Source of the DNA: Candidatus Hydrothermarchaeum profundi
Lineage (GTDB): Archaea; Hydrothermarchaeota; Hydrothermarchaeia; Hydrothermarchaeales; Hydrothermarchaeaceae
Assembly (NCBI GenBank): GCA_002011125.2
Contig: MTMF02000008.1
Span: forward strand, 32,001 to 96,000
Reading direction: 5' to 3'
Length of the DNA: 64,000 nucleotides
Shown here: positions 1 to 36,651 of the stretch, one piece after another
How positions within the stretch are numbered: the stretch's first letter is position 1
How the letters are laid out: every line of letters starts with the position of its first letter
Notes under the pieces: model-generated
Told to the model about the DNA's origin: nothing
Seen by the model: the letters and a program-made list of their open reading frames with translations, nothing else
Database searches by the model: none
Position numbers and translations under genes: made by a program

Positions 1-9
1 TATTAAGAA

Positions 10-25
10 TTGAATTTATTTTCAA
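10..25. promoter_or_regulatory. Inverted repeat TTGAA-N6-TTCAA, possible operator upstream of the respiratory operon
   Basis: Perfect 5-bp arms about 45 nt upstream of a TATA-like TTTTATAT (69-76) that precedes the Rieske gene. Confidence 0.3.
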
Positions 26-108
26 CAAATTAGTGCATCATTTTTTGGAATTTTTTACAAAAAAAAGCTTTTATATTTTGATTGATCGAAAAAAAGCAGT
101 GAATATCC

Positions 109-642
109 ATGGATGATGAAATAGCGCATAAATCAGACAGGATGTCGGTCTCTAGAAGGAATTTCCTGAGAACTATTGGCTGGGGAAGTATAGTTGCCTT
201 CTTGAGCGGTTCCCTTTTGGCTGTTGTGAGATATTTATTTCCAAAGGTTTCTTATGAGCCTTCTCCCTCTTTTAAAGTGCAGACACCTGAAGATTATGAG
301 ATTGGGACAGTAGTTGTTGATAAACCTCACAAGGTTTTCATAGTACGTGAAGAAAATATAATATACGCTCTTATTGCGGTTTGTACCCATCTTGGATGTA
401 CGCCCCGATGGTTTCCGGATGAAGGAATTTTCAAATGCCCTTGCCATGGAAGCAGATTTTATAAGAATGGTATTAATTTCTATGGTCCTGCGCCTAGACC
501 ATTAGACAGGGCTTTCATTACGTTAGCTCCCGATGGCAGGATTTTGATAGATACGAGTAAAAAATTTAGTTCTGATGGCAGATCTTATGGTGAGGGATAT
601 TTAGGAGACTGGAAAGACCCTAGATCGTATTTAGAAGTGTGA
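109..642 (+). CDS. Rieske [2Fe-2S] subunit of a cytochrome bc-type complex
   Basis: Tat motif SRRNFL, TM helix, CTHLGC and CPCHGS boxes, GPAPRPL. Confidence 0.95.
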
Positions 643-643
643 T

Positions 644-1366
644 GTGATCTTTATGGGCTGGATTAAAAAAATAAAAGAAAGCAGGGTGTGGAAATCCTAT
701 TTTAGGGAAGAGTATGATGACACTTCTCGTGGAAGGACAAGAAGGATCCTCAGTAATGTTTGGTTCCACATACATCCTGCAAAAATTTCAAAAAAAGCTA
801 TAAATCCGTCATATACTCTTTGTCTTGGGGGAATTTCATTTCTTTTATTTATTATTCTTACAGTAAGCGGTATCCTTTTGATGTTTTATTACGTCCCAGA
901 TGTTAATAGAGCTTACGATGACATGCTTGATTTAGAGACAGTGGTGCCATTTGGTATTCCTTTAAGAAACATACACAGGTGGGCTGCCCATGGGATGATC
1001 ATAGCAGTTGTTGGCCATATGTGCCGAGTATTCTTTACTGGAGCTTATAAGCCTCCGAGAGAGTTTAATTGGGTTGTTGGAGTTTCTCTTTTATTACTTA
1101 CACTTCTATTGAGTTTTACTGGATATTTACTCCCCTGGGATCAATTGGCTTATTGGGCTATTACCGTTGGAACAAATATAGCCTCTTATGCACCTGTTGT
1201 GGGGCCAAAAATTAGATTTCTCCTTCTTGGGGGAAATACAGTAGGACAAAACGCTTTAATCCGTTTCTATGTGCTTCATGTAATCCTTCTACCTACGCTA
1301 ATGATGTTGCTTATGATTCTCCATTTTTGGAGAGTGCGAAAAGATGGCTTTTCTAGGGGACTATAA
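644..1366 (+). CDS. Cytochrome b N-terminal (b6-like) subunit
   Basis: CLGG motif, heme His in HRWAAH/GH and [21 protein letters not shown]; 240 aa split form. Confidence 0.95.
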
Positions 1367-1378
1367 GGAGGAAGATTA

Positions 1379-1831
1379 ATGGATAAAGAGGAAAAGACAG
1401 AGGCAAGGGTGCATACCTGGCCGCATTTAATGGCTAGGGAATTTATAGTAGCTCTGGCGTTAACTGTTTTCCTAATGGGCATATCGCTTGTCTTTAATGC
1501 TCCATTAGAAGAACATGCTAATCCTGAGATTACACCTAATCCTGCTAAAGCTCCTTGGTATTTCTTGGGCGTACAAGAACTGGTTTCATATGACGCATTT
1601 TTAGGTGGTGTGCTAATTCCGACACTGATTGTTTTAGCATTATTTGCTACGCCCTATATTGATAAAAATCCAAGGGGAGTTGGAATATGGTTTTCAAGAG
1701 AGAGAAAACTCGCTATACTCCTCTTTGCATTGTTGGTGATAATCTGGACGATATTAATAATAATTGGGGTTTATTTCAGAGGTCCGGAGTGGAGATGGTT
1801 CTGGCCGTGGGAATCTTGGGAGATCACATGA
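1379..1831 (+). CDS. Cytochrome b C-terminal subunit (subunit IV-like)
   Basis: ANPEITPNPAKAPWYFLG (PEWY-equivalent), three TM helices. Confidence 0.92.
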   Translation: MDKEEKTEARVHTWPHLMAREFIVALALTVFLMGISLVFNAPLEEHANPEITPNPAKAPWYFLGVQELVSYDAFLGGVLIPTLIVLALFATPYIDKNPRGVGIWFSRERKLAILLFALLVIIWTILIIIGVYFRGPEWRWFWPWESWEIT

Positions 1832-1840
1832 GGTGAAAAA

Positions 1841-2857
1841 ATGAGGATGCTTACATTATTTGTTGTTCTCAGTATGGGATTACTTGCCGTCTTTGCAATC
1901 GGTGTTTATAAAGAAGTATCTCCTGAGTGGAAAAAATATCAAATTGAATATTATGAGGAGCTTAAAAGTGACCTGGAGTCTAAATATAATAATGTTATAG
2001 ATCCTGGCGAAAAAGAAAGACTTAGAATGCAGTTAGAAGCTCTTAAAGAAGAAAAAATTGGGGTAAAACAGATTCTATTGCGTAATAGAGAAGTAGATCG
2101 TTGTCCAACATGTCATATAGATCTAAATACGCTTGCGAATAAGCATCCTACTTCAAAGCATTTTCCTTTTGATATTTATGGTTGCACTGTATGTCATGGT
2201 GGTGAGGGCAGAGCCCTAGATGAAGAGGAAGCCCATAAAGGAATATATGCGACAAAGGCTGATATGTGGTGGCGTTTGAGGGATTCAGAAACTATCTTTA
2301 ACTTTTGGAAGCAACTTGCAATTCTGACTCCTCCTCAAGAGATAGGTAGACAGAAAGAAAAGGAAATGCTTGACTTCCGTGAGTTCACAATTACTGGAGA
2401 AAAAGCTAAGTATTATGGTACGGAGAGCTGTTTGAAATGTCATAAGGATCTTGCTAGCAATCATATTGAAAGATGGGGGAAAACTAAGTTTAAAACGATG
2501 GAAATAGTGAAAAACTCTATTGATTTTATTGAAGGGGATCAAAGTTACAAGGAGCAATGCTATCGGTGTCATACGACTGGCTATGACGAAGATACAGGAA
2601 ATTATAAAGAGGAAGGAGTAAGGTGCGAAGCTTGCCATGGTCCTGGAGAAGTATATTACTATTTGATGAATATAGGCAAATATCGAGAAGCCTCTGAGAT
2701 CGCTATGATAGGGGTAGACTATAATGTGTGTTTTAATTGTCATACTGCTAGGCGACATGAAATGCGGTTTGGAGTCTTTGAAAAAGGTGACTATCAGGGC
2801 GACTGGTATTGGCATGGGTATGATACTATTAATGAAAATAGACAGGAGGAAGATTAA
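1841..2857 (+). CDS. Membrane-anchored hexaheme cytochrome c
   Basis: N-terminal TM; six CxxCH motifs (CPTCH, CTVCH, CLKCH, CYRCH, CEACH, CFNCH); C-terminal part resembles c554-like domains (CHTTG, CEACHGPG). Confidence 0.9.
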   Translation: MRMLTLFVVLSMGLLAVFAIGVYKEVSPEWKKYQIEYYEELKSDLESKYNNVIDPGEKERLRMQLEALKEEKIGVKQILLRNREVDRCPTCHIDLNTLANKHPTSKHFPFDIYGCTVCHGGEGRALDEEEAHKGIYATKADMWWRLRDSETIFNFWKQLAILTPPQEIGRQKEKEMLDFREFTITGEKAKYYGTESCLKCHKDLASNHIERWGKTKFKTMEIVKNSIDFIEGDQSYKEQCYRCHTTGYDEDTGNYKEEGVRCEACHGPGEVYYYLMNIGKYREASEIAMIGVDYNVCFNCHTARRHEMRFGVFEKGDYQGDWYWHGYDTINENRQEED

Positions 2858-4173
2858 TGCCTGAGGTATACAATTGGCAACTCGGGAGGAAAATGAAGTT
2901 TCCTTTTCAGGAAGCTTATCCAAAAAAACAATTTGCATTTGTTTTCAATCTTAACCGTTGTATAGCTTGTCAGACTTGTACAATGGCATGCAAATCTACT
3001 TGGACCTTCAGCAAGGGTCAAGAGTTTATGTGGTGGAATAATGTTGAAACAAAGCCTTATGGGGGTTACCCACAGCACTGGGATATAAAACTCCTTAAAA
3101 TGCTTGATGAGTCTCATAAGAAAATGGGAAGAAAGCCTATTTGGAAAAGTGAGATGGAGAAGGGTACTGCCCGGCCTTATGGAGTTTATGAAGGTTTGAC
3201 TATATTTGAAGCTCTCCCGGGGGAATCCACACCGATGGGTTTTACTCCTAGCGAAGTAGCATTGGGTTACTTACCTGGCGATAAAGAATGGCGGTTCCCA
3301 AATATTTTTGAAGATTCTCCTTATGGGCCACTAGGAAAAAGAAATGCATTCGTGCATTCGAAGGGTACCTCTTTGCCTGAGCATGAGCACTGGTTTTTCT
3401 ACCTTCCACGCTTATGTAATCATTGTACTTATCCTGCTTGTCTTGCTGCCTGCCCACGCAAAGCGATCTACAAGCGGGAGGAGGACGGTATTGTTCTGAT
3501 TGACCAAAAACGTTGTAGAGGATATAAAAAATGCGTTGAAGCATGTCCTTATAAAAAACCAATGTTCCGGTCTGCGACTAGGGTAAGTGAGAAATGTATC
3601 GCATGCTATCCTAGGATTGAAGGGAAAGATCCATTGAGTAATGGAAAACCAATGGAAACTAGGTGCATGACCGCATGCGTAGGTAAGATCCGAATTCAGG
3701 GGCTTGTTGATATAGATTCTAATGGGGTTTGGAAAAAAGATCCCCAAAATCCTATTTATTTCTTAGTGCATGTTGAGAAGGTTGCGCTACCCCTTTATCC
3801 TCAATTTGGTACTCTTCCCAATGGATATTATATCCCCCCCAGGTGGGTGCCTAGGAAGTATCTCTATCAAATGTTCGGTCCCGGTGTAGATGAAGCGATA
3901 GAAAGGTATACGGCTCCTTCTAGGGATCTTCTAGGTTTGTTGCAACTTTTCAGAACTACTCAAAAAATCATATTCAAATTTGAGGTACAAAAAACTGGGG
4001 AAAAAATCTATGAAACAACAATCAATGGCAAAAAATGGGCGATGTATAATGACAGGGTTATCGGTTATGATAAAGACGGAGAAATAGTCGTCGATACAAA
4101 GGTTCTAGAGCCTATTTTTGAAAGAAAACAGAAGGATCAGTTTGGTTATTATAAGCATTATAATTCAATTTAA
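2857..4173 (+). CDS. nxrB: Nitrite oxidoreductase/nitrate reductase beta (Fe-S) subunit, Nitrospira/anammox type
   Basis: MPEVYNWQLGR start, CIACQTCTMACK, WWNNVETKPYGG, CNHCTYPACLAACP, CRGYKKCVEACPYKK, CIACYPR...CMTACVG. Confidence 0.9.
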   Translation: MPEVYNWQLGRKMKFPFQEAYPKKQFAFVFNLNRCIACQTCTMACKSTWTFSKGQEFMWWNNVETKPYGGYPQHWDIKLLKMLDESHKKMGRKPIWKSEMEKGTARPYGVYEGLTIFEALPGESTPMGFTPSEVALGYLPGDKEWRFPNIFEDSPYGPLGKRNAFVHSKGTSLPEHEHWFFYLPRLCNHCTYPACLAACPRKAIYKREEDGIVLIDQKRCRGYKKCVEACPYKKPMFRSATRVSEKCIACYPRIEGKDPLSNGKPMETRCMTACVGKIRIQGLVDIDSNGVWKKDPQNPIYFLVHVEKVALPLYPQFGTLPNGYYIPPRWVPRKYLYQMFGPGVDEAIERYTAPSRDLLGLLQLFRTTQKIIFKFEVQKTGEKIYETTINGKKWAMYNDRVIGYDKDGEIVVDTKVLEPIFERKQKDQFGYYKHYNSI

Positions 4174-4182
4174 GGTGGTAAG

Positions 4183-4908
4183 ATGGATATAGTATCAATT
4201 AAGGCATTGGCTCGGAGTGTTATATATAAGCATCTTTCCTTATCTTTTCTTTATCCTGATTTAGAGTTTTATGAATTATTAAAAAATAGGATGTTTATAA
4301 AACGAATTCGGGATGCTTCTACGCTTTTAAAAAACGGAAAAGAATTAGAAAAGGGACTGAGGATGTTAGAAGAAAATGTTAAAAACCTAACATTTACATC
4401 GTTACAAGCTGAGCATCGTGTGATTTTCAGTAATATACCCTCAAATGAGTGTCCCCCTTACGAAGCCGAATACGGGACAGCTCACATTCACCAGAAAACA
4501 AAAGAGTTAGCTGATGTTTCAGGATTCTACAAGGCTTTCGGTTTAAACCCTTCAAATAAAATAGGGGAGCGATTTGATCATATTTCAGTAGAGTTTGAAT
4601 ATATGCATTTCTTAACATATGGAGAAGCTTATGCTCGAGATAAGAATGATGCAAATATGGTGGAAATTTATGTTTCGACACAGAGAAAATTTGTAGAAGA
4701 GCACATTGGAAAATGGGTGCCTGTGTTTTTGAGGTTGCTAAAAAAGAAAGCCAGAAAAGGATTTTACAATGCGCTCGTTGTGTTTGCATCTGATTTTGTA
4801 TCTTATGAAATTTCACTATTAGGTGTCAATCCAGAGGAAGTTGGTAAGCCTGAGATTTCGTCATTAGCTATGGAAGATGAATGTTTTTCGTGCGGGTCTT
4901 GTGGGTGA
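4183..4908 (+). CDS. TorD/DmsD-family molybdoenzyme chaperone
   Basis: PPYEAEY, DVSGFYKAFG, ERFDHISVEFEYM, FVEEHIGKW motifs. Confidence 0.88.
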   Translation: MDIVSIKALARSVIYKHLSLSFLYPDLEFYELLKNRMFIKRIRDASTLLKNGKELEKGLRMLEENVKNLTFTSLQAEHRVIFSNIPSNECPPYEAEYGTAHIHQKTKELADVSGFYKAFGLNPSNKIGERFDHISVEFEYMHFLTYGEAYARDKNDANMVEIYVSTQRKFVEEHIGKWVPVFLRLLKKKARKGFYNALVVFASDFVSYEISLLGVNPEEVGKPEISSLAMEDECFSCGSCG

Positions 4909-4913
4909 TAAAG

Positions 4914-5825
4914 ATGGAGATAAAATATGACTCTAGGCTTGTGGAGAATGTTGTAGTAGAAATAATTCGTCGAAAGGAAAAAGAGGGAGATTATGAACTT
5001 AGTGAATATTATCATCGAATCGCGGACCAAATTTACGATGCTCCAAAAAAAGATAGAGAAGATGAATTTAAAAAACTTCATCTAAGCATTTTCATGCGAT
5101 TAGGCTTAAATGAGGTTATAAACGAAGTAGTTGGAGAATTTCCGCAGTTGAGCAAAATAGATGAAATGGTGATATTGGAGGCTAATACCACAGAGGAAGC
5201 AGATTTACTAGTTAGTGAGAAAGGACAAAAAAGAATAGTAATAAAACTTCCTCCAGAAGGATTTCTCAGTTCACATCTTCTTTCTAGGTTTATGCGTCAT
5301 GAACTTATGCATATATCGGATATCCTTGATGAGGAGTTCGGTTATAAAAAAGAAAAATTTTCTAATTCTTTAGCAAATGAAATCGTGATTAAAGAGAAAT
5401 ATAAGTTACTCTGGGATATTTATGTAGACTCTCGTTTAATCTCATGTGGAAAAGAAACGATAGCTGATAAAAGTTTACGATATAAGGAATTCAATAAGAT
5501 TTTTCAAAAAATTCCAGAGGAGTACAGAGAAAGAGTCTTTAACTCTCTTTGGAATTCTAAGAAGTTAACTCATAATGAAATCTTAAGTTTATCGAAAGAA
5601 CCGCGGAAACTCCTTGAAAGGTCTGGTATAAGTTCCAAGGGAATTCTCTTAAGAGGTACACCATGTCCCCTCTGCGGATTTCCCACATATAATTGGTTTG
5701 AAAATCTAAGCGAATTTCGAGATGTTATAGCTGCTATAAAAGAAGACTTTCCGGAGTGGGACCAGGATGATGGAGCTTGTGATAGATGCGTGGAATTGTA
5801 TAGTTTGCAAGTTAGGGGGTTCTAA
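4914..5825 (+). CDS. Conserved hypothetical protein of the NXR cluster with HExxH motif and C-terminal CxxC...CxxC
   Basis: RHELMH, CPLCGF...CDRC; ATG at 4914 more likely than 4881. Confidence 0.75.
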   Translation: MEIKYDSRLVENVVVEIIRRKEKEGDYELSEYYHRIADQIYDAPKKDREDEFKKLHLSIFMRLGLNEVINEVVGEFPQLSKIDEMVILEANTTEEADLLVSEKGQKRIVIKLPPEGFLSSHLLSRFMRHELMHISDILDEEFGYKKEKFSNSLANEIVIKEKYKLLWDIYVDSRLISCGKETIADKSLRYKEFNKIFQKIPEEYRERVFNSLWNSKKLTHNEILSLSKEPRKLLERSGISSKGILLRGTPCPLCGFPTYNWFENLSEFRDVIAAIKEDFPEWDQDDGACDRCVELYSLQVRGF

Positions 5826-5848
5826 AGTTGAAAAAGGAGGCTAAAGAA

Positions 5849-8800
5849 ATGGCATTAACTAGAAGAAAATTTTTAAAGATGAGTGTAGCAACCGCTGCAG
5901 CAGCTATGGGATTAGGGAAAAAAGGGCTATCTTTAACCATTCTTGAACCTGTACGGGTTGATAATCCATTAGAGTCTTATCCAGATAGAAACTGGGAGAA
6001 AGTTTACCTTGATCAATATAAATATGATTCTACCTTCACCTACATATGTTCTCCAAATGACACTCATGCTTGCAGAGTTAAAGCCTTCGTTAGAAATGGA
6101 GTGATAGTGAGGGTAGAGCAAAACTATGACGTGCAGAAATATAAGGATCTATATGGAAATCAAGCAACAGTGCATTGGAATCCTAGAATGTGTCTCAAAG
6201 GATACACATTTCACCGCAAGGTATATGGGCCCTATCGCCTTAAAAAGCCCTTGATAAGGAAAGGGTGGAAGGAGTGGGCGGACGATGGTTTTCCTGAACT
6301 TACTCCAGAGAATAAGAAAAAATATAAATTTGATTCTAGGGGAACTGATGAACTTCTTCAGATAGACTGGGAAAGCGCATTTGAATATGCAGCTAGGGGG
6401 ATCATAGCCATAGCAAAGAGATACAGCGGGGAAGAAGGAGCTAAAAAATTATTAGCTCAAGGATATGCACCAGAAATGGTAAAGGAGATGGGGGGGGCTG
6501 GAACTAGGACTATAAAATGTCGTGGAGGAATGGGTCTTTTAGGCGCCATAGGAAAATACGGGATGTATAGGTTTTCCAACATGTTGGCATTACTGGATTC
6601 TCATATTCGGGGCGTCGGTCCAGATGAAGCCAAAGGCGGACGCAATTGGGATAATTATACATGGCATGGTGATCAGGCTCCTGGTCATCCGTGGGTACAT
6701 GGTTTGCAGACAAGTGAATGTGATTTCAATGACTTGAGAAATTCAAAGCTTCACATAGCTGTTGGTAAAAACCTAGTAGAAAATAAAATGCCTGAATCTC
6801 ATTTCTTCATAGAACTAATCGAACGAGGTGCCAAGGTCGTTGTTATATCACCGGACTATTGTGCTCCTAATACAAAAGCAGATTATTGGATACCAGTGAG
6901 ACCTAATTCAGACACGGCTTTATTCTTAGGGATTACTAAAATATTGATGGATAACAAGTGGTATGATGAAAAATTTGTTAAAAAATTCACTGACTTCCCG
7001 TTGCTTGTTAGAACTGATACACTAAAGAGGCTGAGAGCTGACGAGGTATTTCCAAATTATGTGAACCAAGATATTTCCAATGGCGTAATGATGAGGGTCA
7101 TGGGGTTAACAAAGGAACAAAGGGATAAAATAGGAGATAGAGTGATATGGGACAAAAATACTAATGGACTCAAAGCCATATCCCCTGAGGACGTGGGTAA
7201 AAAACTTGAAGAGAAAAACATCGATCCTGACTTAGAGTGGAAGGGCAAGGTAAAACTCGTTGATGGATCTGAAGTAGAAGTAATGACTCTCTGGGAGATG
7301 TACAAAGTTCATTTAAGAGACTATGATATCGATACAGTAGCTGAAATAACACAAGCCCCAAAAGATCTAATTATGAAATTAGCAAAGGACATTGCTACAA
7401 TTAAGCCTGTGGCTATACATGTTGGTGAAGGAATAAATCATTGGTTCCATGCAACAGAGGTCAATAGAGCTACATATCTCCCTCTTATGTTAACAGGTAA
7501 TATAGGAATCCATGGTGCAGGAAGTCATACTTGGGCAGGAAATTACAAGGCAGCTTTATGGCAGGGAAGTTCATGGTCTGGTCCTGGATTTCTTGGTTGG
7601 ATTAAAGAAGATCCGTTTAATCCTAACTTAGATCCTAATGCAAAGGCAAAGGACTTAAAAATAAGGGGCACCGTCAAGGGAGAGGCAATTGCTTATTGGA
7701 ACCATGGCGACACACCTCTGGTAGTAGAGACACCGAAATATGGTAGGAAAGTGTTTACAGGCAAAACAGCTATGCCTACGCCAACAAAGGTTATCTGGAC
7801 TACAAATGTCAATTTGTTAAACAACGCAAAACACGCCTATGACATGCTTTTCAATGTAAATAATAATGTTGAGCTTATAATGCAAAATGAGATTATAATG
7901 ACCTCTAGTGTAGAATACGGAGATATAACTTTTCCAGCTAACTCTTGGGTTGAATCACAGGCATATGAGGTACATGTAAGTTGTTCTAATCCTTTTCTAC
8001 AAATTTGGAAAGGAGGAATAAAGCCCCTCTATGATTCTAAGGACGATGTCAGAATATTAGCAGAGGTAGCTAGGGCAATTGGCCGAGAACTTAATGACAA
8101 GCGCTTCGAAGATTACTGGAAGTTTGCACTAGAGGGGAGGGAAGAGGTATATATAAATCGCTTACTTGACGGTTCTGCAACAACCCATGGATATACAGTG
8201 GAGGATATCATAGCAGGAAAATATGGAGAGCCTGGAGCAGCTTTAATGTTATTTAGGACTTATCCTAGAGTTGCATTTTATGAACAAATTCATGATAGCT
8301 GGCCATTTTACACGGATACAGGAAGGCTACATGCCTACTCAGATATCCCAGAAGCAATTGAATATGGAGAAAATTTTGTGGTACATAGAGAAGGACCAGA
8401 AGCAACCCCATATCAACCAAATGTAATAGTAAGCAATAACCCCTATATTCGTCCTGATGATTACGGCTTGCCTGACGATGCTAAACACTGGGATGAGCGC
8501 ACAGTGTTGAATAAAAAGATGCCATGGAGTAAAGTAAAAAACACAAAGAACTTCCTCTGGGAAAAAGGCTATAAATTTTATTGCATTACCCCCAAGACTC
8601 GACATCGTGTGCATTCTTCGTGGAGTGATGTTGACTGGCATATGATATGGGATTCTAACTTTGGGGATCCTTATAGGATGGATAAACGAACTCCTGGTGT
8701 TGGCGAACATCAGATCCATATTAATCCTATTGCTGCTAGGGACTTGGGATTAAATGATGGAGACTATGTTTATGTGGACGCTAATCCAGCGGACCGACCA

Positions 8801-9295
8801 TATCGTGGTGCTAAAAGCAATGACCCAAGATATAGGGTGGCGAGAGCCATGCTCAGAGTTAAGTATAACCCTGCGTTTCCTTATCACTTTACAATGATGA
8901 AGCATGGAGCTTTTATAGCTACCGAAAAAAGCGTGGATGCTCATGAAACTCGCAGCGATGGACGTGCCTTATCCAAGGGCACTGGATATCAGGCAAACTT
9001 CAGATATGGTAGCCATCAAAGTATTACTCGCGACTGGTCAATGCCGATGCATCAGACCGATTCTCTTTTCCATAAAAAGAAGGCCGTTATGGGTTTCATG
9101 TTTGGTAGCGAGTCTGATAATCACGCTATAAATACAGTTCCAAAAGAGACCTTAGTGAAAATATCTAAAGCAGAAGACGGAGGTCTAGGTGGAATAGGAA
9201 TCTGGGAACCAGCTACTACAGGTTTTTCTCCAGCTAATGAGAGTGAGTTTATGAAAAAATACTTGAGGGGGGATCTAATAAATGTTAAGAGGTGA
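5849..9295 (+). CDS. nxrA: Tat-exported nitrite oxidoreductase/nitrate reductase alpha (Mo-bisPGD) subunit, Nitrospira/anammox type
   Basis: TRRKFLK Tat signal, CSPNDTHAC...NPRMCLKG FS0 motif, NYTWHGDQAPGHP Mo-ligand region, TPKTRHRVHS; SD AGGAGG before ATG 5849. Confidence 0.92.
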   Translation: MALTRRKFLKMSVATAAAAMGLGKKGLSLTILEPVRVDNPLESYPDRNWEKVYLDQYKYDSTFTYICSPNDTHACRVKAFVRNGVIVRVEQNYDVQKYKDLYGNQATVHWNPRMCLKGYTFHRKVYGPYRLKKPLIRKGWKEWADDGFPELTPENKKKYKFDSRGTDELLQIDWESAFEYAARGIIAIAKRYSGEEGAKKLLAQGYAPEMVKEMGGAGTRTIKCRGGMGLLGAIGKYGMYRFSNMLALLDSHIRGVGPDEAKGGRNWDNYTWHGDQAPGHPWVHGLQTSECDFNDLRNSKLHIAVGKNLVENKMPESHFFIELIERGAKVVVISPDYCAPNTKADYWIPVRPNSDTALFLGITKILMDNKWYDEKFVKKFTDFPLLVRTDTLKRLRADEVFPNYVNQDISNGVMMRVMGLTKEQRDKIGDRVIWDKNTNGLKAISPEDVGKKLEEKNIDPDLEWKGKVKLVDGSEVEVMTLWEMYKVHLRDYDIDTVAEITQAPKDLIMKLAKDIATIKPVAIHVGEGINHWFHATEVNRATYLPLMLTGNIGIHGAGSHTWAGNYKAALWQGSSWSGPGFLGWIKEDPFNPNLDPNAKAKDLKIRGTVKGEAIAYWNHGDTPLVVETPKYGRKVFTGKTAMPTPTKVIWTTNVNLLNNAKHAYDMLFNVNNNVELIMQNEIIMTSSVEYGDITFPANSWVESQAYEVHVSCSNPFLQIWKGGIKPLYDSKDDVRILAEVARAIGRELNDKRFEDYWKFALEGREEVYINRLLDGSATTHGYTVEDIIAGKYGEPGAALMLFRTYPRVAFYEQIHDSWPFYTDTGRLHAYSDIPEAIEYGENFVVHREGPEATPYQPNVIVSNNPYIRPDDYGLPDDAKHWDERTVLNKKMPWSKVKNTKNFLWEKGYKFYCITPKTRHRVHSSWSDVDWHMIWDSNFGDPYRMDKRTPGVGEHQIHINPIAARDLGLNDGDYVYVDANPADRPYRGAKSNDPRYRVARAMLRVKYNPAFPYHFTMMKHGAFIATEKSVDAHETRSDGRALSKGTGYQANFRYGSHQSITRDWSMPMHQTDSLFHKKKAVMGFMFGSESDNHAINTVPKETLVKISKAEDGGLGGIGIWEPATTGFSPANESEFMKKYLRGDLINVKR

Positions 9296-9299
9296 ACTC

Positions 9300-10253
9300 A
9301 TGAATCGCAAGGGTATTTTAGCTTTTGGAGTCGTCTTTCTTATATCATTAACTTTAACATTTTTAAATATCAAAATTGCAAATTCTCAGGGAATTATACT
9401 TGAAGCTAAATATGTCGAGCATATCTCTATCGATAATATTAATGATCCAGTCTGGGATGAAGCAGTGCCTGTAATAGTGCCTCTTAGTGCTCAGTCGAGA
9501 ATAACAGCTCCGCGGGGAGGTGGAGCAATTAAATCCCTAACTGCTAGAGCACTTCATGATGGAGAGGCGATATATCTTAAACTCACTTGGAAAGATGATA
9601 CTGAAGATGTAAGCTTTTTGAGACAAGAAGATTTCAGAGATTCTGTCGCGGTTCAATTTCCAGTGAAATTAGATAATGGAAAGTTACCTTCTGTGTGTAT
9701 GGGACAACTTGGAGCAGCTGGCAACATATGGCATTGGAAGGCAGATTGGAACGAGGAATACTTAAATGGGTTCAAAGATATTGATAATGTGTATCCAAAT
9801 ATGATGGTGAATTTTTATCCAAGAGAAGAAGAGGAGATATTCTATCCTGCAAAATCTGTCGGAAATCTTTATTCTGTAGATAAACGGACAACCCCTGTTG
9901 AAAATCTAATTTCTACTGAATACGGTACAATAACTCCCTCAGCTGAACAGAATGTAATAGGAAAGGGAGAGTGGAAAAATGGAGAATGGACTGTTGTTAT
10001 GAGTCGATCCTTTACGACACCTTACGAAAGCGATGCACAATTTGGAGTGGGAAAGAGAACAGCTATCTCCTTTGCAGCATGGGACGGCTCTGCTGGGGAA
10101 AGAGATGGCTTGAAGTCTACGTCTACATGGATAGACCTTGAGATATCTGAACCCCTACCACAAAAATCTCCTTTGGATACGATAGTCGTATTTACACTAT
10201 TTGCAGCGATTGTGATTTTTGTTGTATTTATAATAATTAGAACTGTTACATGA
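9300..10253 (+). CDS. nxrC: Heme-b gamma subunit (EbdC/NxrC-like DOMON domain) with C-terminal membrane anchor
   Basis: FRDSVAVQFP, CMGQ (Met ligand), IWHWKA, FAAWDGSAGERDGLK (Lys ligand); N-terminal signal/TM and C-terminal TM. Confidence 0.82.
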   Translation: MNRKGILAFGVVFLISLTLTFLNIKIANSQGIILEAKYVEHISIDNINDPVWDEAVPVIVPLSAQSRITAPRGGGAIKSLTARALHDGEAIYLKLTWKDDTEDVSFLRQEDFRDSVAVQFPVKLDNGKLPSVCMGQLGAAGNIWHWKADWNEEYLNGFKDIDNVYPNMMVNFYPREEEEIFYPAKSVGNLYSVDKRTTPVENLISTEYGTITPSAEQNVIGKGEWKNGEWTVVMSRSFTTPYESDAQFGVGKRTAISFAAWDGSAGERDGLKSTSTWIDLEISEPLPQKSPLDTIVVFTLFAAIVIFVVFIIIRTVT

Positions 10254-10262
10254 GGAAGGAAC

Positions 10263-10505
10263 ATGGTTGATGAAAAAAGTGTAGCTGAAATTTTACATAA
10301 GGAGTTCTCAGGGATAGTGGATGAAGATAAGATAAATAAAATTGCTAAGCAAATTGTTGAGTTAGAAGAAGAATGGGAAGAACTTAAGATAGTTGATAAA
10401 GAAATGGGCTGGCGGTTTTCAGTTCAATGCCCAGATATATGTTATCTTGGAGAAAAAGCTAAGGAGGGTGATGTGTTTAAAATTTTAAGAAAAAAGAGAA
10501 AGTAA
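10263..10505 (+). CDS. Small hypothetical protein with CxxxC
   Basis: SD GAGGAAGGA, CPDIC motif, in operon. Confidence 0.6.
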   Translation: MVDEKSVAEILHKEFSGIVDEDKINKIAKQIVELEEEWEELKIVDKEMGWRFSVQCPDICYLGEKAKEGDVFKILRKKRK

Positions 10506-10547
10506 AATATTCTCCTCTTATTTCAAAGGTAGGAACTCTGCAGGGGT

Positions 10548-11315
10548 GTGATAAAGATATATTTAAGCCGTTCATGTGTTACATTATTTATTGTTGGCAT
10601 TGTTATTAGTGCCATATTTGGGTATTCTGTAAGTTATAGTGAGGTCTCTTCTATAAAACAAGAGATGGAAAAAGTGAAAGCTGAAAATAGAGAACTCGAA
10701 GCAAGGATACAGGCCGGATTCAGAGTTTTTTCGGAGTTAGAGAGAATGTCGTATACCCTCAGCCAGATAAGAGTGGCTCTTTTATTGGGTGACTATGAAG
10801 TAGCTACTTTTAGGGCTAATCAATTTAAGGAATCTGCGACAGGACTTTCTAAATATTTAAAACCTGAATATACTACTACCCTGGAGGAGCTAGTAGATGG
10901 GTTAATTGTTGCTATAGAGGAGGGAAATGAAGAAGCAATTGAGGAGAGATCTAGAGCTCTCTTTCTCCTAGTGCAAATATTAGAGTCAGAATTTGGTGTT
11001 AGAGAAGACGTAGAGTTAATAGGGGAGATAGATATCAAGAATAATATGAGAAGGATGAATCATGAACTTGCTAGAATACTCTCTGCTTTGGATGAGGATA
11101 ACTATAACATGACAAAAGAGGCGTTTAATGATTTCAAAAAAATATATATGGCTTTATCTGAAACAACTCCTGAAGCATGGGATCCTTATTTTAGAACTGA
11201 TATTGTATTTGAAATTGAAAAAAGCATTATAGAAAAAGACAAAAATAATTCATTAGAAGCTCTTAATAAACTTTCAGAAAAGAGTTGTGATAAGTGTCAT
11301 ACAAAATATCGTTGA
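10548..11315 (+). CDS. Membrane-anchored helical monoheme cytochrome c (class II/c'-like)
   Basis: N-terminal TM, predominantly helical, single C-terminal CDKCHTKYR. Confidence 0.75.
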   Translation: MIKIYLSRSCVTLFIVGIVISAIFGYSVSYSEVSSIKQEMEKVKAENRELEARIQAGFRVFSELERMSYTLSQIRVALLLGDYEVATFRANQFKESATGLSKYLKPEYTTTLEELVDGLIVAIEEGNEEAIEERSRALFLLVQILESEFGVREDVELIGEIDIKNNMRRMNHELARILSALDEDNYNMTKEAFNDFKKIYMALSETTPEAWDPYFRTDIVFEIEKSIIEKDKNNSLEALNKLSEKSCDKCHTKYR

Positions 11316-11344
11316 CTCATATTCCTTGGCATAAATGATAAAAA

Positions 11345-11908
11345 GTGATGGAAATTAAGGCGACAGAGCAATTAAAAGAAGAACATAAGGTTATTAAACT
11401 GATGTTGCAGGTTTTAATAAAGATTTGTGAAAAACTAGAGTCGGGTGAAAAGGTTCCTATAGAACACCTTAATAAAATAGTGGATTTTATTAGAACATTT
11501 GCGGATAAATGTCATCATGGAAAGGAAGAAGACCTCCTTTTTCCGGCAATGGAAAAATCCGGCGTGCCTAGAGAGGAGGGTCCGATTGGCGTAATGTTGG
11601 CGGAGCATGATAATGGGCGGAAATATGTTAAGAATATGGATGAGGCTATTTCTAGATATGGGAGAGGGGATAATACTGCGATACCTGACATAATAGCGAA
11701 TGCAGAGGGATACATCAATCTTCTAGCTCAGCACATTGAGAAGGAAGACAATATACTTTACAAATTAGCAGATATGCATCTCCCCATGGAGAGGCAGGAA
11801 GAATTACTCAAAGAATTCGAAAAAATTGAGCGGGAAAGAATTGGTATTGGGAAGCATGAGGAATTTCACGAATTAATACATCAATTAAGGGATATATACT
11901 TACAATAA
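11345..11908 (+). CDS. Hemerythrin/HHE-domain protein
   Basis: EEH, CHHGKEEDLLFP, GPIGVMLAEH, HIEKEDNILY. Confidence 0.9.
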   Translation: MMEIKATEQLKEEHKVIKLMLQVLIKICEKLESGEKVPIEHLNKIVDFIRTFADKCHHGKEEDLLFPAMEKSGVPREEGPIGVMLAEHDNGRKYVKNMDEAISRYGRGDNTAIPDIIANAEGYINLLAQHIEKEDNILYKLADMHLPMERQEELLKEFEKIERERIGIGKHEEFHELIHQLRDIYLQ

Positions 11909-11956
11909 CTTTTAAGATTATATTTTAAGTAGTTAATAATATGTATTATCACCGAC

Positions 11957-12298
11957 ATGTCGGTTAACACACACAAAGGAATCGAGTTGGGCATGCTTCA
12001 AATGCAGATTTTATGGCTTTTATGGCGGGAGCCCACTCATGGTTATGAGTTAATGAAAAGACTTGATAAAATAAAGAATAGCAAAGTAGAGCAGGGGACT
12101 CTTTATCCAGCGCTTCAAAAATTGGAAGAGAATAATCTTATAAGAGTTAAAAGGGTAGGGGAGCGGGGTAAAAAGATATACGAACTCACTAGCAGGGGGG
12201 AGGAGATTATGATAAAAACATGTGAAGAATTCTCAAAAACTTTTTCGGGGATTTTTAGTGATTTTGTATGTAAAACATGTAAAACAGAGGTGAGATAA
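11957..12298 (+). CDS. PadR-family transcriptional regulator with Cys-rich C-terminus
   Basis: HGYELMK, GTLYPALQKLE, KKIYELTSRG; C-terminal TCEEF...CKTC. Confidence 0.88.
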   Translation: MSVNTHKGIELGMLQMQILWLLWREPTHGYELMKRLDKIKNSKVEQGTLYPALQKLEENNLIRVKRVGERGKKIYELTSRGEEIMIKTCEEFSKTFSGIFSDFVCKTCKTEVR

Positions 12299-13503
12299 TG
12301 AGGAGAGTGTATATGGATCATGCGGCGACTACACCTGTAGACCCCCGAGTTATGGAAGCAATGAAACCTTTTTTCTCAGAGAAATATGGTAACCCGTCTT
12401 CACTTTATAGTTTTGCTCAGGAAGCAAAAAAAGCGATGGAGGAGGCGAGAGAAAAGATAGCTGACCTAATTAACTCATCTTCCTCTGAAGTTATATTCAC
12501 ATCCGGTGGCACAGAGTCGGACAACTTGGCTATAAAAGGGGTTGCTTTTGCTAACAAGAAAAAGGGTAAACATATAATAACTTCATCTATAGAGCATCAC
12601 GCAGTGCTCCATCCATGTGAGTGGCTTGAAAAAATGGGTTTTGAGGTAACATATTTACCAGTTGACAATAAAGGCTTTGTTTCTGTAGATAAGTTGGAAG
12701 AGGAGATTCGCAACGATACGATCTTAATTTCAATTATGCATGCTAATAATGAAATCGGAACTATTGAACCTATAGAAGAGATAGGGAAAATAGCGAAGGA
12801 AAGAGGCATATACTTCCATACCGATGCAGTTCAAACTGTAGGAAAAATACCTGTAGACGTAGAAAAAATGAATGTAGATTTATTGACTATCTCAGGTCAT
12901 AAAATGTATGGACCAAAAGGGGTTGGGGCTCTTTATGTTCGCAAAGGCACAAAAATAACTCCTTTAATACACGGAGGGGGCCATGAACGGAATCTTAGAT
13001 CAGGTACTGAGAATGTTTCTGGTATAGTAGGATTCGGAAAGGCGGCAGAACTCGCTGCTCGAGAAATGGATAAAGAAGCAAAGAGGCTGGTAAAGCTGAG
13101 GGATAGGTTAATTGAGGGCGCCTTAAAGATCGAGAACTCTTGGTTAAATGGACCAAGGAAAAGAAGGTTGCCGAATAATGTTAACATAGGCTTTAAATTC
13201 ATAGAAGGTGAATCTTTAATTTTAGAACTCGACTTTAGCGGCATTTACGCCAATACTGGAAGTGCTTGTTCCTCAAAGTCTCTTAAACCAAGCCATGTTC
13301 TAACTGCTATTGGGTTAAGACCCGAGGAAACCCACGGGTCACTACGATTTACTCTTGGTAAACAAAATTCAGATGAAGATGTGGACTATGTATTAGAAGT
13401 ACTGCCTAATGTAGTTGAGAGATTAAGAAGAATATCCCCGTTTAAAAAAGATTTTGGGGAATATGAGGAGGCTTTAGCAAAGGAACAGTCTCATAAACAC
13501 TAG
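12298..13503 (+). CDS. iscS: Cysteine desulfurase IscS/NifS
   Basis: YMDHAATTP, FTSGGTESDN, SGHKMYGPKG, TGSACSS. Confidence 0.95.
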   Translation: MRRVYMDHAATTPVDPRVMEAMKPFFSEKYGNPSSLYSFAQEAKKAMEEAREKIADLINSSSSEVIFTSGGTESDNLAIKGVAFANKKKGKHIITSSIEHHAVLHPCEWLEKMGFEVTYLPVDNKGFVSVDKLEEEIRNDTILISIMHANNEIGTIEPIEEIGKIAKERGIYFHTDAVQTVGKIPVDVEKMNVDLLTISGHKMYGPKGVGALYVRKGTKITPLIHGGGHERNLRSGTENVSGIVGFGKAAELAAREMDKEAKRLVKLRDRLIEGALKIENSWLNGPRKRRLPNNVNIGFKFIEGESLILELDFSGIYANTGSACSSKSLKPSHVLTAIGLRPEETHGSLRFTLGKQNSDEDVDYVLEVLPNVVERLRRISPFKKDFGEYEEALAKEQSHKH

Positions 13504-34136: not shown

Positions 34137-34577
34137 TTATTCCTCCGGTATAACTTCCTTAGTGTGGAAAGCATTTATTATCCTCCTAATTGCTGTTGGT
34201 CCAATACTCCCTATGATGACCATCATCGTGAAGTAGAAAGTAAGGACAAAAACAAACTTTGGACCTTTAATGTAAAACGTGCCAAATGGAGTAGCGAGTG
34301 CAAAAAGAACCCCCATAAGATGAAGGCCTATGACAGACCCGATTACCCCATACGGAAGGAATCCTCTAATCCCAGTTTTTTCAAATAAAAATCGTCCAGT
34401 TAGTCCTATTATAAATCCCTTTACTATAGCCTCGGAGAGGATGTTAATTTTCGGCCACCAGTCCATAGGGATATACGCTAACATATTCCCTACTATCAAA
34501 TAATAAAAGCCATTAAAGAAAAACATCGTATATAAGGCAGATAGAACGGTTGTGTAGAACTTACTAATCTTCTTCAT
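34137..34577 (-). CDS. Four-TM membrane protein
   Basis: Hydrophobic segments; overlaps upstream gene end. Confidence 0.6.
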   Translation of the reverse strand: MKKISKFYTTVLSALYTMFFFNGFYYLIVGNMLAYIPMDWWPKINILSEAIVKGFIIGLTGRFLFEKTGIRGFLPYGVIGSVIGLHLMGVLFALATPFGTFYIKGPKFVFVLTFYFTMMVIIGSIGPTAIRRIINAFHTKEVIPEE

Positions 34578-36651
34578 GTGTCACCTCTGCTCTTATATTG
34601 CGTTTTAGAGTTGGGTCATAGTGGCATTCTTCGCAAATCGTGGGTGGCGGAAGGAATCTGTGTACATCTGGCGCATGACACTCTGTGCATGAGATCCCTT
34701 CTCTACCGACATGTACGTCATGACCTATTAAACTTGGATTGCTCCTCTGAGGCAGAATACTGCTATTTAATTTTATGTAACTTGGGGATACTATAGGATT
34801 AAAAATCGGAGTTACAAAGTCTTCACGTAGATGGCAGTTAGTGCATACCTTATCGGGTACGTGAGCATGTCCTTCTATCTCGGTTACCCTTTCAACAAAC
34901 GCCATAACTAGTTCTAGTGGGACCTGATGCGGATACGCATGGTGGCAGTCGTGGCAGTTTGTAACCTTTCCATGTACGCTTTCTTCCCACAAGTAATAAG
35001 GTTCCTCCATAAGCTTTGCTCCGGCATGGCAAAAAACTAGACACATTCGAGAATCGAAATACATAAAATAATAAAACTTGAAACTCAGTACCATAAAGAC
35101 TAACATGAAAATAGATAGAGTAGCTAGAAGTAAAATTTTGAATTTATTTGGAAGGCGAGATATAAATTTTACAATATCATATATCTTATTTTTCTGATAA
35201 TAAATCCCATAAAGTAGGGATCTGAGTCTACCCTTAATATTGAACTTAATTATCAAAATCAGAGTTAAAAAGACTAGAGATGACAATAAAAGTAAAAAAA
35301 AGGAGAGTGATTTTTCTTTGAAGGAATTCAAAATTCTTCTATCGGGGTTAAGTGGATTTTCATCTCTAGAATCTATAATCCCATCTTTATCGGTGTCTCT
35401 ATCAAAAAAATTAGTACCTAAGAAATACTCGTCAGCATCGTTAATTCCGTCTTTATCAGAGTCCTCTCCAACCATTATAATTTTAACGCTATTTCCATCA
35501 TTTCCTATCAAAATTTCAGGCAGGCCATCCCCAGTAATGTCCCCAAGCGTTATAGAAGCTCTAACAGGATTCTCAACGTTATAGCTCCACTTTCTAATTC
35601 CATCGTGAGAGAGACAGTTTATTTTGCCGTTCTGATTACCTATTAACACCTCGTAAATGCCATCACCATCTATGTCCCCAGCTGTTGGAGAACTAAAAAT
35701 TGCTCCACCAGTATTAAAAGTCCATTTTTTTGAGTTATAAGAACTAAGGCAGTACACCTTTCCTTCGAGAGTACCTATTAAAATCTCATAGTTGCCATCT
35801 AAATCCAAGTCATAAATGGAGGGAGGAGAATATATTGATCCATCTATCTTGTAATATCCTTGGATTTCTGTATTACGGATCCAATAAATATGCCCGTCTA
35901 AGGTTCCGACGATGATAACTGAATTTGGTAACCCTACTACTGATTTGACAGGACTTGAAAAATTAAGAATCCTTATAATCTCGCCAGTAGAGTTAAGTAT
36001 GTAGATTTTTCCATCATTACTTCCCAGAAGTATTTCAAGAGTTCCATCTCCGCCTATATCTGCAACTTCTACCGGAGAAGAAGGTCTACTCGCATTAAAA
36101 ATCCACTTTTCGTTCCCTTCATGGTCTAGGCAATATACGCCTCCTCCCTGGATTCCAACGAGTATCTCAAAATAACCATCTTTCTCCAAATCTACGATCG
36201 TAGGAGTGTCAGTAATCTGACCACCTATATTATGACTCCATTTTAATTCTCCATCAGGAGAAATAACATAAATTATACCATCATGATTTCCGAAGATAAT
36301 CTCTTTAGAATTATCTCTATCTAGGTCAGCAACAGAGGGAGTAGCTGATATCCAGTTTCCGGTTTGAAATTTCCATCTTAGGTTTAGGCCATCTTGGTAT
36401 GCTAAGTTGTATATATAATTATCATACGAGGTAATCAATATCTCATTTTTACCATCCAAATCTATGTCAACAATTAAAGGTGCAGCTCTTATAACTCCCT
36501 TTGTATTAAAATTCCATATTACGGCGTTACCCCATGAGCTTAGGTATTCCACTTGAAACTCATAAGGAGAATTAGAAATCGCAACAGCGTAGACCGCCGG
36601 GAAAGAAAGCAAAAATATTAATAAGATTCTTTCCCTGGTTCCTATATTCAT
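34564..36651 (-). CDS. FG-GAP/beta-propeller surface protein fused to a pentaheme cytochrome c
   Basis: Signal peptide; repeats D(I/L)DxDGxxEIxxG with W-x-F; DSDKDG/DTDKDG; two TM; CLVFCH, CHDCH, CTNCH, CTECH, CEECH. Confidence 0.8.
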   Translation of the reverse strand: MNIGTRERILLIFLLSFPAVYAVAISNSPYEFQVEYLSSWGNAVIWNFNTKGVIRAAPLIVDIDLDGKNEILITSYDNYIYNLAYQDGLNLRWKFQTGNWISATPSVADLDRDNSKEIIFGNHDGIIYVISPDGELKWSHNIGGQITDTPTIVDLEKDGYFEILVGIQGGGVYCLDHEGNEKWIFNASRPSSPVEVADIGGDGTLEILLGSNDGKIYILNSTGEIIRILNFSSPVKSVVGLPNSVIIVGTLDGHIYWIRNTEIQGYYKIDGSIYSPPSIYDLDLDGNYEILIGTLEGKVYCLSSYNSKKWTFNTGGAIFSSPTAGDIDGDGIYEVLIGNQNGKINCLSHDGIRKWSYNVENPVRASITLGDITGDGLPEILIGNDGNSVKIIMVGEDSDKDGINDADEYFLGTNFFDRDTDKDGIIDSRDENPLNPDRRILNSFKEKSLSFFLLLLSSLVFLTLILIIKFNIKGRLRSLLYGIYYQKNKIYDIVKFISRLPNKFKILLLATLSIFMLVFMVLSFKFYYFMYFDSRMCLVFCHAGAKLMEEPYYLWEESVHGKVTNCHDCHHAYPHQVPLELVMAFVERVTEIEGHAHVPDKVCTNCHLREDFVTPIFNPIVSPSYIKLNSSILPQRSNPSLIGHDVHVGREGISCTECHAPDVHRFLPPPTICEECHYDPTLKRNIRAEVTHEED

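Follow-up and report, generated by a model that had tools for sequence, protein, structure and literature searches.

An anammox-type nitrite oxidoreductase encoded in one gene run with a Rieske/cytochrome b module and a hexaheme cytochrome in Candidatus Hydrothermarchaeum profundi

The gene run

The locus described here lies in a 64,000-nucleotide stretch (the window; C8:32001-96000) of the genome of the archaeon Candidatus Hydrothermarchaeum profundi (G000; 2.19 Mb, 97.65% complete). Nine plus-strand genes, from 109 to 10253, follow one another without a break: a Rieske protein, cytochrome b6, subunit IV, a hexaheme cytochrome, nxrB, a chaperone, a hypothetical protein, nxrA and nxrC. The arrangement most likely represents a core-clade nitrite oxidoreductase (NXR) that is fed by an anammox-related Rieske/cytochrome b (bc) module, with NXR in the position that a protein of the hydroxylamine oxidoreductase (HAO) family holds in anammox bacteria.

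An earlier note on this DNA had placed the first five open reading frames (ORFs) at 109-642, 644-1366, 1379-1831, 1841-2857 and 2857-4173, all on the plus strand, and had pointed to their tight spacing. Both observations are accurate: the gaps are 1, 12 and 9 nt, followed by a 1-nt overlap of the hexaheme stop and the nxrB start (TAATG, 2857). The gap of 1 nt between the Rieske and cytochrome b genes presumes a GTG start at 644; the in-frame ATG at 653 would make it 10 nt. The Pfam domains of the five products are, in order, Rieske, Cytochrome_B, Cytochrom_B_C, multiheme c and Fer4_11. The run had been taken to end at 4173, which is too early, as a narJ-like gene, a conserved hypothetical gene, nxrA and nxrC continue it to 10253. 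The hexaheme–nxrB junction is no assembly chimera, because 2341-4686 is covered without any difference by a contig from sequencing run X2, and X2 and the possible source run X1 come from separate studies; a second contig covers 1-2351.

The nine genes likely share one transcript. A pattern match at 41..76 (+) gives a candidate archaeal terminator and promoter, consisting of T6 tracts (41, 51), a purine-rich stretch and a TATA-like box (70-76). The T6 tracts lie behind the upstream gene, and the next one occurs only at 10726. Among the 11 TATA-like matches in 1-12300, the 70-76 box is the only intergenic one; the other ten are inside ORFs, one of them 370 nt upstream of nxrB. A scan for sigma-70 promoters and terminators, a type unsuited to an archaeal host, gave chance level. 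The GC content is flat along the locus and thus gives no sign of recent transfer.

An identical 15-nt stretch comprising the ribosome-binding site and start precedes both subunit IV (1367-1381) and nxrB (2845-2859), the only two copies in the genome; it may serve to match the translation of the two genes or be a scar left by a join. A membrane protein is encoded ahead of the Rieske gene, at C8:31087-32013, ending at window position 13. It has a 34% homologue adjoining the nxr cluster of a relative, G002 (L101:10828-11688), and may belong to the bc–nxr system.

The NXR enzyme

The nxrA gene (5828..9295, +) encodes a Tat-exported molybdoenzyme of the anammox/Nitrospina clade. Its product matches NXR-A of Kuenenia (PDB ID: 7b04) with 1903.7 bits, the next structure scoring 195 bits, and its twin-arginine signal scores 21.2 bits with TIGR01409 (cut-off 16.7). 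NxrA is 69% identical to that of the Kuenenia NXR-ABC complex (PMC8387239), and the Mo, FS0 and heme ligands are alike. The Mo ligand D282, the substrate asparagine N77 and the 3Cys/1Asp set of FS0 (C74, D78, C82 and C122) are intact, the reference residues in NXR-A being D275, N70, C67 and D71; the NxrC heme b ligands M140 and K278 align with the Met/Lys pair of Kuenenia. In an IQ-TREE analysis of 27 of the 117 collected rows, NxrA falls into a 21-row clade with Kuenenia and Nitrospina (support 100/100). The narG model scores 129.5 on NxrA, far below its cut-off of 1084. Assignment to the Ext selenite/tellurite operon was considered and rejected: ExtP passes (292.3, cut-off 290), but ExtQ (69.6, cut-off 150) and ExtM (28.6, cut-off 800) fail. 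The grouping of NxrA with the NxrA proteins of its relatives has a support of 98 in FastTree and is not resolved by IQ-TREE, and monophyly of the archaeal sequences, which IQ-TREE does not uphold, was dropped.

The remaining subunits are similarly complete. NxrB (2857..4173, +), recognized by Fer4_11, is an iron-sulfur subunit with 15 cysteines, which suit four clusters. It is followed by a NarJ/TorD-type chaperone (4183..4908, +; PF02613) and by a conserved hypothetical protein of nxr clusters (4881..5825, +). The latter matches no Pfam family at E 0.001, has homologues beside nxr in many loci, and probably starts a few codons further in. NxrC (9282..10253, +), the heme b subunit, was identified by PF09459, alignment and hydropathy, and carries an N-terminal signal and a C-terminal membrane anchor. 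The order nxrB–chaperone–hypothetical–nxrA is common to Kuenenia and the window. The archaeal enzyme differs from that of Kuenenia in the membrane anchor of NxrC and the placement of its gene after nxrA, in having a bc module attached and no CydA-like module, in the absence of a clear NXR-T, and in its archaeal host. The candidate for NXR-T is the monoheme protein encoded at 10548-11315; the Kuenenia candidate matches it only at E 0.14, at the heme motif, and it has no relevant match in the PDB.

The bc module

The Rieske [2Fe-2S] protein (109..642, +; PF00355) has a twin-arginine motif and one membrane helix, with motifs at residues 16, 92 and 110. Its best matches in the PDB are two Kuenenia structures, 9rk4 and 9rk3, at 108 bits each. 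The second-sphere Ser/Phe pair and the long C-terminal tail are as in 9rk3, which from its sequence and gene position is taken as Kustd1480; this Rieske protein has been measured at +335 mV (bioRxiv 10.1101/2025.06.25.661457). The cytochrome b6-type subunit (644..1366, +; PF00033), which aligns with the Kuenenia subunits and falls into a bacterial clade, has intact heme b ligands (H111, H125, H212, H227) and the heme cN cysteine C60 in a CxGG motif. Residues H42 and R232 align with His43 and Arg247, the predicted extra-heme site of Kuste4571. Subunit IV (1379..1831, +; PF00032, alignment and hydropathy) has 150 residues, three membrane helices and the Qo motif APWY; its Glu21 is a candidate heme cN ligand. 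With Rieske boxes, four heme b histidines, the CxGG cysteine, a separate subunit IV and APWY, the module has all the marks of the APWY-clade b6-type complexes characterised in PMC4122944.

The closest well-described relative is the Kuenenia complex R/b-3 (Kuste4569-4574), in which the Rieske protein, b6 (57.5% identity), subunit IV (51%) and a hexaheme cytochrome (47%) are encoded in like order and which shares APWY, CxGG and the predicted extra-heme histidine. R/b-3 has a gene for an NAD(P) oxidoreductase, whereas the run in the window does not; subunit IV has three helices here and five in the anammox complexes; and the second sphere and tail of the Rieske protein are of the Kustd1480 type, unlike R/b-3. 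In the tree, the cytochrome b belongs to a clade of 35 rows (SH-aLRT support 99) that are otherwise non-archaeal or unlabelled, with no other row from Hydrothermarchaeota among them. The nearest sequence to cytochrome b and subunit IV is L151 (63.5% and 58%), while the hexaheme is nearest to anammox proteins. To judge from these affinities, the module is a bacterial-type mosaic, related to R/b-3 yet not a member of it. A further Rieske/cytochrome b complex, associated with a decaheme cytochrome, is encoded at C9:664260-667401 (L163:4260-7401); its type is shared by other members of the order.

The hexaheme cytochrome

The product of 1841..2857 (+) is a membrane-anchored hexaheme cytochrome c and an orthologue of the R/b-3 hexaheme of anammox bacteria; it is 47% identical to P0005 across 96% of its own length. 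The earlier note had counted the heme motifs correctly, there being six CxxCH, but had missed this orthology and the usual neighbour, an HAO-like octaheme. P0005 is identical in sequence to the gene product between subunit IV and the HAO-like gene in the Kuenenia locus L307, whose operon runs Rieske–flavoprotein–cytochrome b–subunit IV–hexaheme–HAO; by gene position it is therefore Kuste4573. An identification of the archaeal hexaheme with Kustd1485 was rejected, the latter being an octaheme of 948 residues.

A search returned 106 proteins; nearly all of those with an organism name are from anammox bacteria, most rows being without a name. In 15 other loci with full-length homologues, most of them from related and hence not independent anammox genomes, subunit IV lies directly upstream in 14, the remaining one being cut by the contig end. 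The next gene downstream is an HAO-like octaheme, a terminal-reductase candidate, in 13; the other two loci have no such enzyme beside the hexaheme. In H. profundi this slot is filled by nxrB, where Kuenenia R/b-3 has the HAO-like gene. About ten further full-length representatives were found without gene context. A search with P0069, run without a positive control, detected no full-length homologue among 94 genomes from the phylum of G090, and there was none in the 2 genomes from that of G076. In the phylum of G066, the partial matches in 7 of 401 genomes are pentahemes encoded in bc operons, and their 3.4-kb loci contain no nxr gene. Fused forms of 831-2370 residues were also searched for and none scored, which is weak evidence.

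The structure model of the hexaheme (pLDDT 73.5, pTM 0.58) has an N-terminal helix at residues 2-26; Foldseek matched it to nothing at an E value of 0.001 or below. When residues 26-335 of the hexaheme were co-folded with NxrC (36-292), the score was 0.01 against a mark of 0.32, with the controls not folded, and this counts neither way.

Gene order in other NXR lineages

Synteny was compared around the 80 best of the 221 NxrB matches to species genomes, in three relatives, and around 60 of the 69 matches that 301 genomes from the phylum of G086 gave (eight with short flanks and one duplicate being left out). The earlier note suggested that the architecture would be convergent and held that bc complexes are generally encoded apart from nxr in anammox bacteria. 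Direct bc–nxr linkage is indeed rare in the core NXR clade. In L024 the bc genes stand behind a second, sister-lineage enzyme, and in L295 they are on the opposite strand. A CydA-like gene is seen in 37 of the 118 core-clade loci; when only the 63 with 8 kb on both sides are taken, bc genes are seen in 1 and CydA-like genes in 26. The cluster in L024 (4310-11858) consists of the core-clade nxr genes and, directly behind them, the sister-lineage enzyme set; Rieske and cytochrome b genes then extend to where the contig stops. Both enzyme types also occur on one contig in L254 and L274.

Outside the core clade the linkage recurs. In the sister lineage, bc genes lie on the same strand beside an NXR-family enzyme in 8 of 21 loci. 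In seven cassettes (L250, L253, L254, L257, L258, L261, L262), bc and a multiheme are directly upstream of a Tat-exported NXR-family enzyme. This enzyme is 39-42% identical to the window NxrA and outside the anammox/Nitrospina clade, and the multiheme is a hepta- or nonaheme, not a hexaheme; a gene for an NAD(P) flavoprotein is present in five of the seven. The cytochrome b belongs to the same broad clade as that of the window.

The second case is a basal anammox lineage, probably Ca. Bathyanammoxibiaceae from its basal position in the tree (PMC10467342). Four genomes (L267-L270) have nxrC-A-B-J followed by a Kustd1480-type Rieske gene, cytochrome b and subunit IV; in three of them, where the contig is long enough, there follows an octaheme of 950 residues that shares 40% identity with Kustd1485. 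As in the window, the NXR cluster and an APWY b6-type complex stand in one run with no flavoprotein gene between them; unlike in the window, the bc genes are behind nxr, the multiheme is the octaheme, and NxrA is 55% identical to the archaeal one. There is no NAD(P) oxidoreductase gene in these runs, and in L268 and L269 the gene behind the octaheme is ferredoxin-like. Hydrazine synthase alpha was detected in four of five genomes tested, namely these four. The basal nxrB type is present in 12 of 92 genomes of the anammox order. In 8 of the 12 (G402, G357, G900, G387, G906, G907, G902, G903), nxrB is followed on its own strand by the octaheme, which begins 3.27-3.38 kb further on, and in the other 4 the two are on separate contigs; in nine other anammox genomes with both genes on one contig, the distance is 74 kb to 1.27 Mb. 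One of the linked genomes, G402, has a second R/b-3-like operon with its own hexaheme and HAO-like gene (L310), the first copy (L309) being without the flavoprotein gene.

The premise of separate bc and nxr genes thus fails for the basal anammox lineage. The cytochrome b clade with SH-aLRT support of 99 is found beside NXR-family enzymes in the sister lineage and in this basal lineage, and because same-clade bc modules adjoin such enzymes in two deeper branches, the archaeal run is not a one-off convergence. The linkage is less singular than first proposed. In the open literature, supplements and subscription papers lying outside the search, we found no paper on an archaeal bc–nxr operon or on the basal anammox linkage. 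The word 'Rieske' does not occur in the accessible text of the paper that introduced Bathyanammoxibiaceae (PMC9723696), and the available part of a published study of Hydrothermarchaeota mentions just nap and nar.

Within the archaeal class, nxrB of this type is present in three of 37 relatives (G002, G022 and G007). In G002 and G022, CydA-like and small cytochrome c genes stand beside nxr; the contig of G007 ends inside nxrA. Searches of the H. profundi genome found neither a cytochrome bd-family gene nor any counterpart of a relative's CydA-like or small cytochrome c genes. The NXR of H. profundi therefore needs another quinol feed, and since a CydA-like module accompanies NXR in two of the three relatives that bear it, the bc module appears to be a substitute electron feed. 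It would have been acquired from bacteria and would have taken the place of the CydA-like/cytochrome c module.

The two gene sets could also be mere neighbours: two cassettes acquired independently into a nitrogen-oxide island, sharing regulation but no electron path. The occurrence of the arrangement in a single genome, the mosaic origin of the module (L151 for cytochrome b and subunit IV, anammox bacteria for the hexaheme) and the 15-nt repeat, which could mark a join, would all suit this. However, it would leave NXR without an evident quinol feed, and the linkage recurs in other branches; we regard this reading as very improbable and, together with the reverse flow considered below, as the least likely of the explanations.

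Electron donors and acceptors in the genome

Menaquinone synthesis is encoded (mqnC, mqnE and the decarboxylase score over their cut-offs; 8 proteins were scanned), as are a NiFe hydrogenase with cytochrome b, a formate dehydrogenase-like enzyme, CdhA, DsrAB and a complex I-like operon. The genome yielded no typical oxygen reductase. Heme-copper matches comprise a NorB-like protein beside a NorC-like diheme, which from motifs and matches we take to be a NorB/NorC-like pair, and a 415-residue protein with partial hits far under the CcoN cut-off. The NorBC-like pair is directly downstream of dsrAB on the same strand (C9:124035-128435; L164:6035-10435).

About 8 kb upstream of the run, on the other strand, are napA and the gene of a membrane-anchored octaheme of the HAO family (C8:20240-24099). 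The two stand behind two two-component systems and are divergent from the bc–nxr run (C8:20240-30963; L162:8240-18963). NosZ, NirK and NrfA were each without a match over cut-off in the genome; with NirK and NrfA thus missing, nitrite reduction is most likely the task of the octaheme, which then requires an electron donor. These genes raise the possibility of a shared hub, in which bc and hexaheme mainly feed the nearby octaheme, for nitrite reduction, and NapA, with NXR a co-regulated neighbour or one client among several. The anammox orthologue of the hexaheme has been proposed to feed Kuste4574 (bioRxiv 10.1101/2025.06.25.661457), an HAO-like gene follows the hexaheme in all but two of the other loci, and no quinol dehydrogenase gene adjoins napA and the octaheme, all of which speaks for the hub and against a feed dedicated to NXR. 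However, the archaeal octaheme is just 23% identical to the Kuste4574 type and nearer to PDB 4qo5, and it lies on the opposite strand behind the two-component systems, whereas nxrB overlaps the hexaheme stop. On balance we think the hub unlikely.

Electron flow and energetics

The earlier note had suggested a supercomplex leading from menaquinol through bc and the hexaheme to NXR that either gains proton-motive force from nitrate reduction or runs in reverse; such a chain in the forward direction is the best reading of the present data, its assembly into a supercomplex being hypothetical, and the reverse falls short energetically. With potentials of -70 mV for menaquinone and +420 mV for nitrate/nitrite, transfer from menaquinol to nitrate is computed to yield 94.6 kJ per two electrons. 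The two charges translocated in a Q-cycle cost approximately 35 kJ at an assumed 180 mV, so that about 60 kJ per two electrons are spare. These energetics, together with a Rieske potential that would be near +335 mV if Kustd1480-like, and hence below nitrate, make quinol → Rieske → hexaheme → NXR the best model.

In this model, low-potential donors (H2, formate, CO or one-carbon oxidation) would reduce menaquinone via the complex I-like enzyme, and the b6-type complex would oxidise menaquinol at the APWY site. One electron would pass from the high-potential Rieske protein to the hexaheme and on to heme b of the membrane-anchored NxrC, NxrB and the Mo of NxrA, which would reduce nitrate to nitrite on the outer face of the membrane. 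The other would return through hemes bP, bN and cN in a Q-cycle, and extracellular nitrate reduction would thereby be coupled to proton translocation. We hold it to be somewhat better than an even chance that menaquinol, bc, hexaheme and NXR are linked in this way, with nitrate reduction and a Q-cycle. Kuenenia NXR is known to reduce nitrate in vitro (PMC8387239).

Comparable designs exist. Haloarchaeal periplasmic Nar is encoded with a Rieske protein, NarB, and a cytochrome b, NarC, for which a Q-cycle has been proposed; according to the available text of these papers, the model is largely bioinformatic, NarC alone having been co-enriched (PMC3509893, PMC7754194). The logic is the same, a Rieske/cytochrome b pair encoded with an outward-facing nitrate reductase, but the haloarchaeal complex is related to those of Actinobacteria and Thermus, has PDWY and a b-type cytochrome link, whereas the window has a split APWY-clade complex, a c-type hexaheme and an NXR-clade enzyme. 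A menaquinol-cytochrome c reductase is reported to couple to Nap in Campylobacter (PMC6195509).

Several observations weigh against the forward chain. ORF pairs no more than 12 nt apart make up 52.6% of the 1389 adjacent same-strand pairs in the genome (from crude ORF calls), and because tight gaps are this common, spacing alone is weak evidence for a single transcript. The same-strand run extends into unrelated genes, for example one that is presumably a cysteine desulfurase. No other core-clade NXR locus among the 118 has directly coupled bc, and the bc–hexaheme–nxr arrangement is in no other genome surveyed; the best cytochrome b match among the 37 class relatives reaches 52%, and none of these relatives has one that belongs to the clade. 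With the archaeal NxrA grouping left open by IQ-TREE, NXR may have arrived together with the bc module rather than before it. NxrC and the soluble portion of the hexaheme each carry a net acidic charge (-11, whole-protein), and NapA offers a second route of nitrate reduction.

APWY itself has been proposed, without biochemical data, as a mark of reverse-running complexes (PMC4122944). In such a reverse mode NXR would oxidise nitrite, and a bc complex driven by proton-motive force would lift the electrons to menaquinone, or they would go to an NO reductase, for which the NorBC-like pair is a candidate. The direction of NXR catalysis is not settled by sequence (PMC10839748), and the archaeal NxrA is in a clade with proven nitrite oxidisers. 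However, the reverse flow requires 94.6 kJ against the 29-39 kJ that two charges, or the 58-77 kJ that four charges, provide at an assumed proton-motive force of 150-200 mV; moreover, there is the lack of a typical oxygen reductase, and stronger donors are encoded. We assign this mode very little probability.

The energy to spare could instead be used in electron bifurcation, as proposed for the anammox complexes (bioRxiv 10.1101/2025.06.25.661457): nitrate would pull the high-potential branch and the low-potential electron would pass, with no Q-cycle, to a cytoplasmic ferredoxin, F420 or NAD(P) acceptor encoded elsewhere. The Ser/Phe pair and tail of the Rieske protein as in Kustd1480 are in line with this, and the agreement of H42 and R232 with the extra-heme site predicted for Kuste4571 was the reason for keeping the alternative. 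On the other hand, the run is without the NAD(P) oxidoreductase gene and subunit IV is two helices shorter than in the anammox complexes. The nearest oxidoreductase homologue (C9:459004-460401) is in an ordinary two-gene pair, which we take to be NfnAB-like. We consider bifurcation in place of the Q-cycle quite improbable.

Significance

How electrons are exchanged between periplasmic NXR and the membrane has been stated as not understood (PMC8387239), and the accessible text of bioRxiv 10.1101/2025.06.25.661457 proposes no favourable partner reaction for Kustd1480-1485. The linkage in the basal anammox genomes suggests NXR as that partner. Gene order in the archaeon, and more directly in the basal anammox bacteria, thus names a candidate that can be tested in Kuenenia biomass, which holds both complexes. 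A broader proposal, which we find rather doubtful, would make APWY-clade b6 complexes with these multihemes partners dedicated to NXR-family enzymes. In H. profundi and the basal anammox bacteria they would form a quinol:nitrate supercomplex, in which the unusually high-potential Rieske would allow nitrate reduction to push low-potential electrons through the membrane to ferredoxin, F420 or NAD(P). Kustd1480-1485 would then find its missing high-potential partner in a nitrate-reducing NXR, and coupling to bc would be the original condition of periplasmic NXR, predating CydA-like modules and aerobic nitrite oxidation.

For H. profundi, a bc-coupled NXR most likely allows extra energy to be gained from nitrate respiration, and the nine genes offer a compact model of energy-conserving periplasmic nitrate reduction. 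They also call for caution, as an anammox-type nxrA in a genome need not signify nitrite oxidation.

Other genes of the window and genome

Behind nxrC (10263-11908) are an 80-residue ORF, the exported monoheme cytochrome, with its heme motif at the C-terminus, and a hemerythrin-domain gene. A second copy of the monoheme cytochrome is located at C9:722735, and hemerythrin genes near nxr are also seen in L045, L273, L282 and L290. Giant multiheme proteins with 67 and 33 CxxCH motifs are encoded at C9:916461-942731. Further along the window, on the minus strand (34564-36651), a beta-propeller is fused to a C-terminal tetraheme cytochrome domain.

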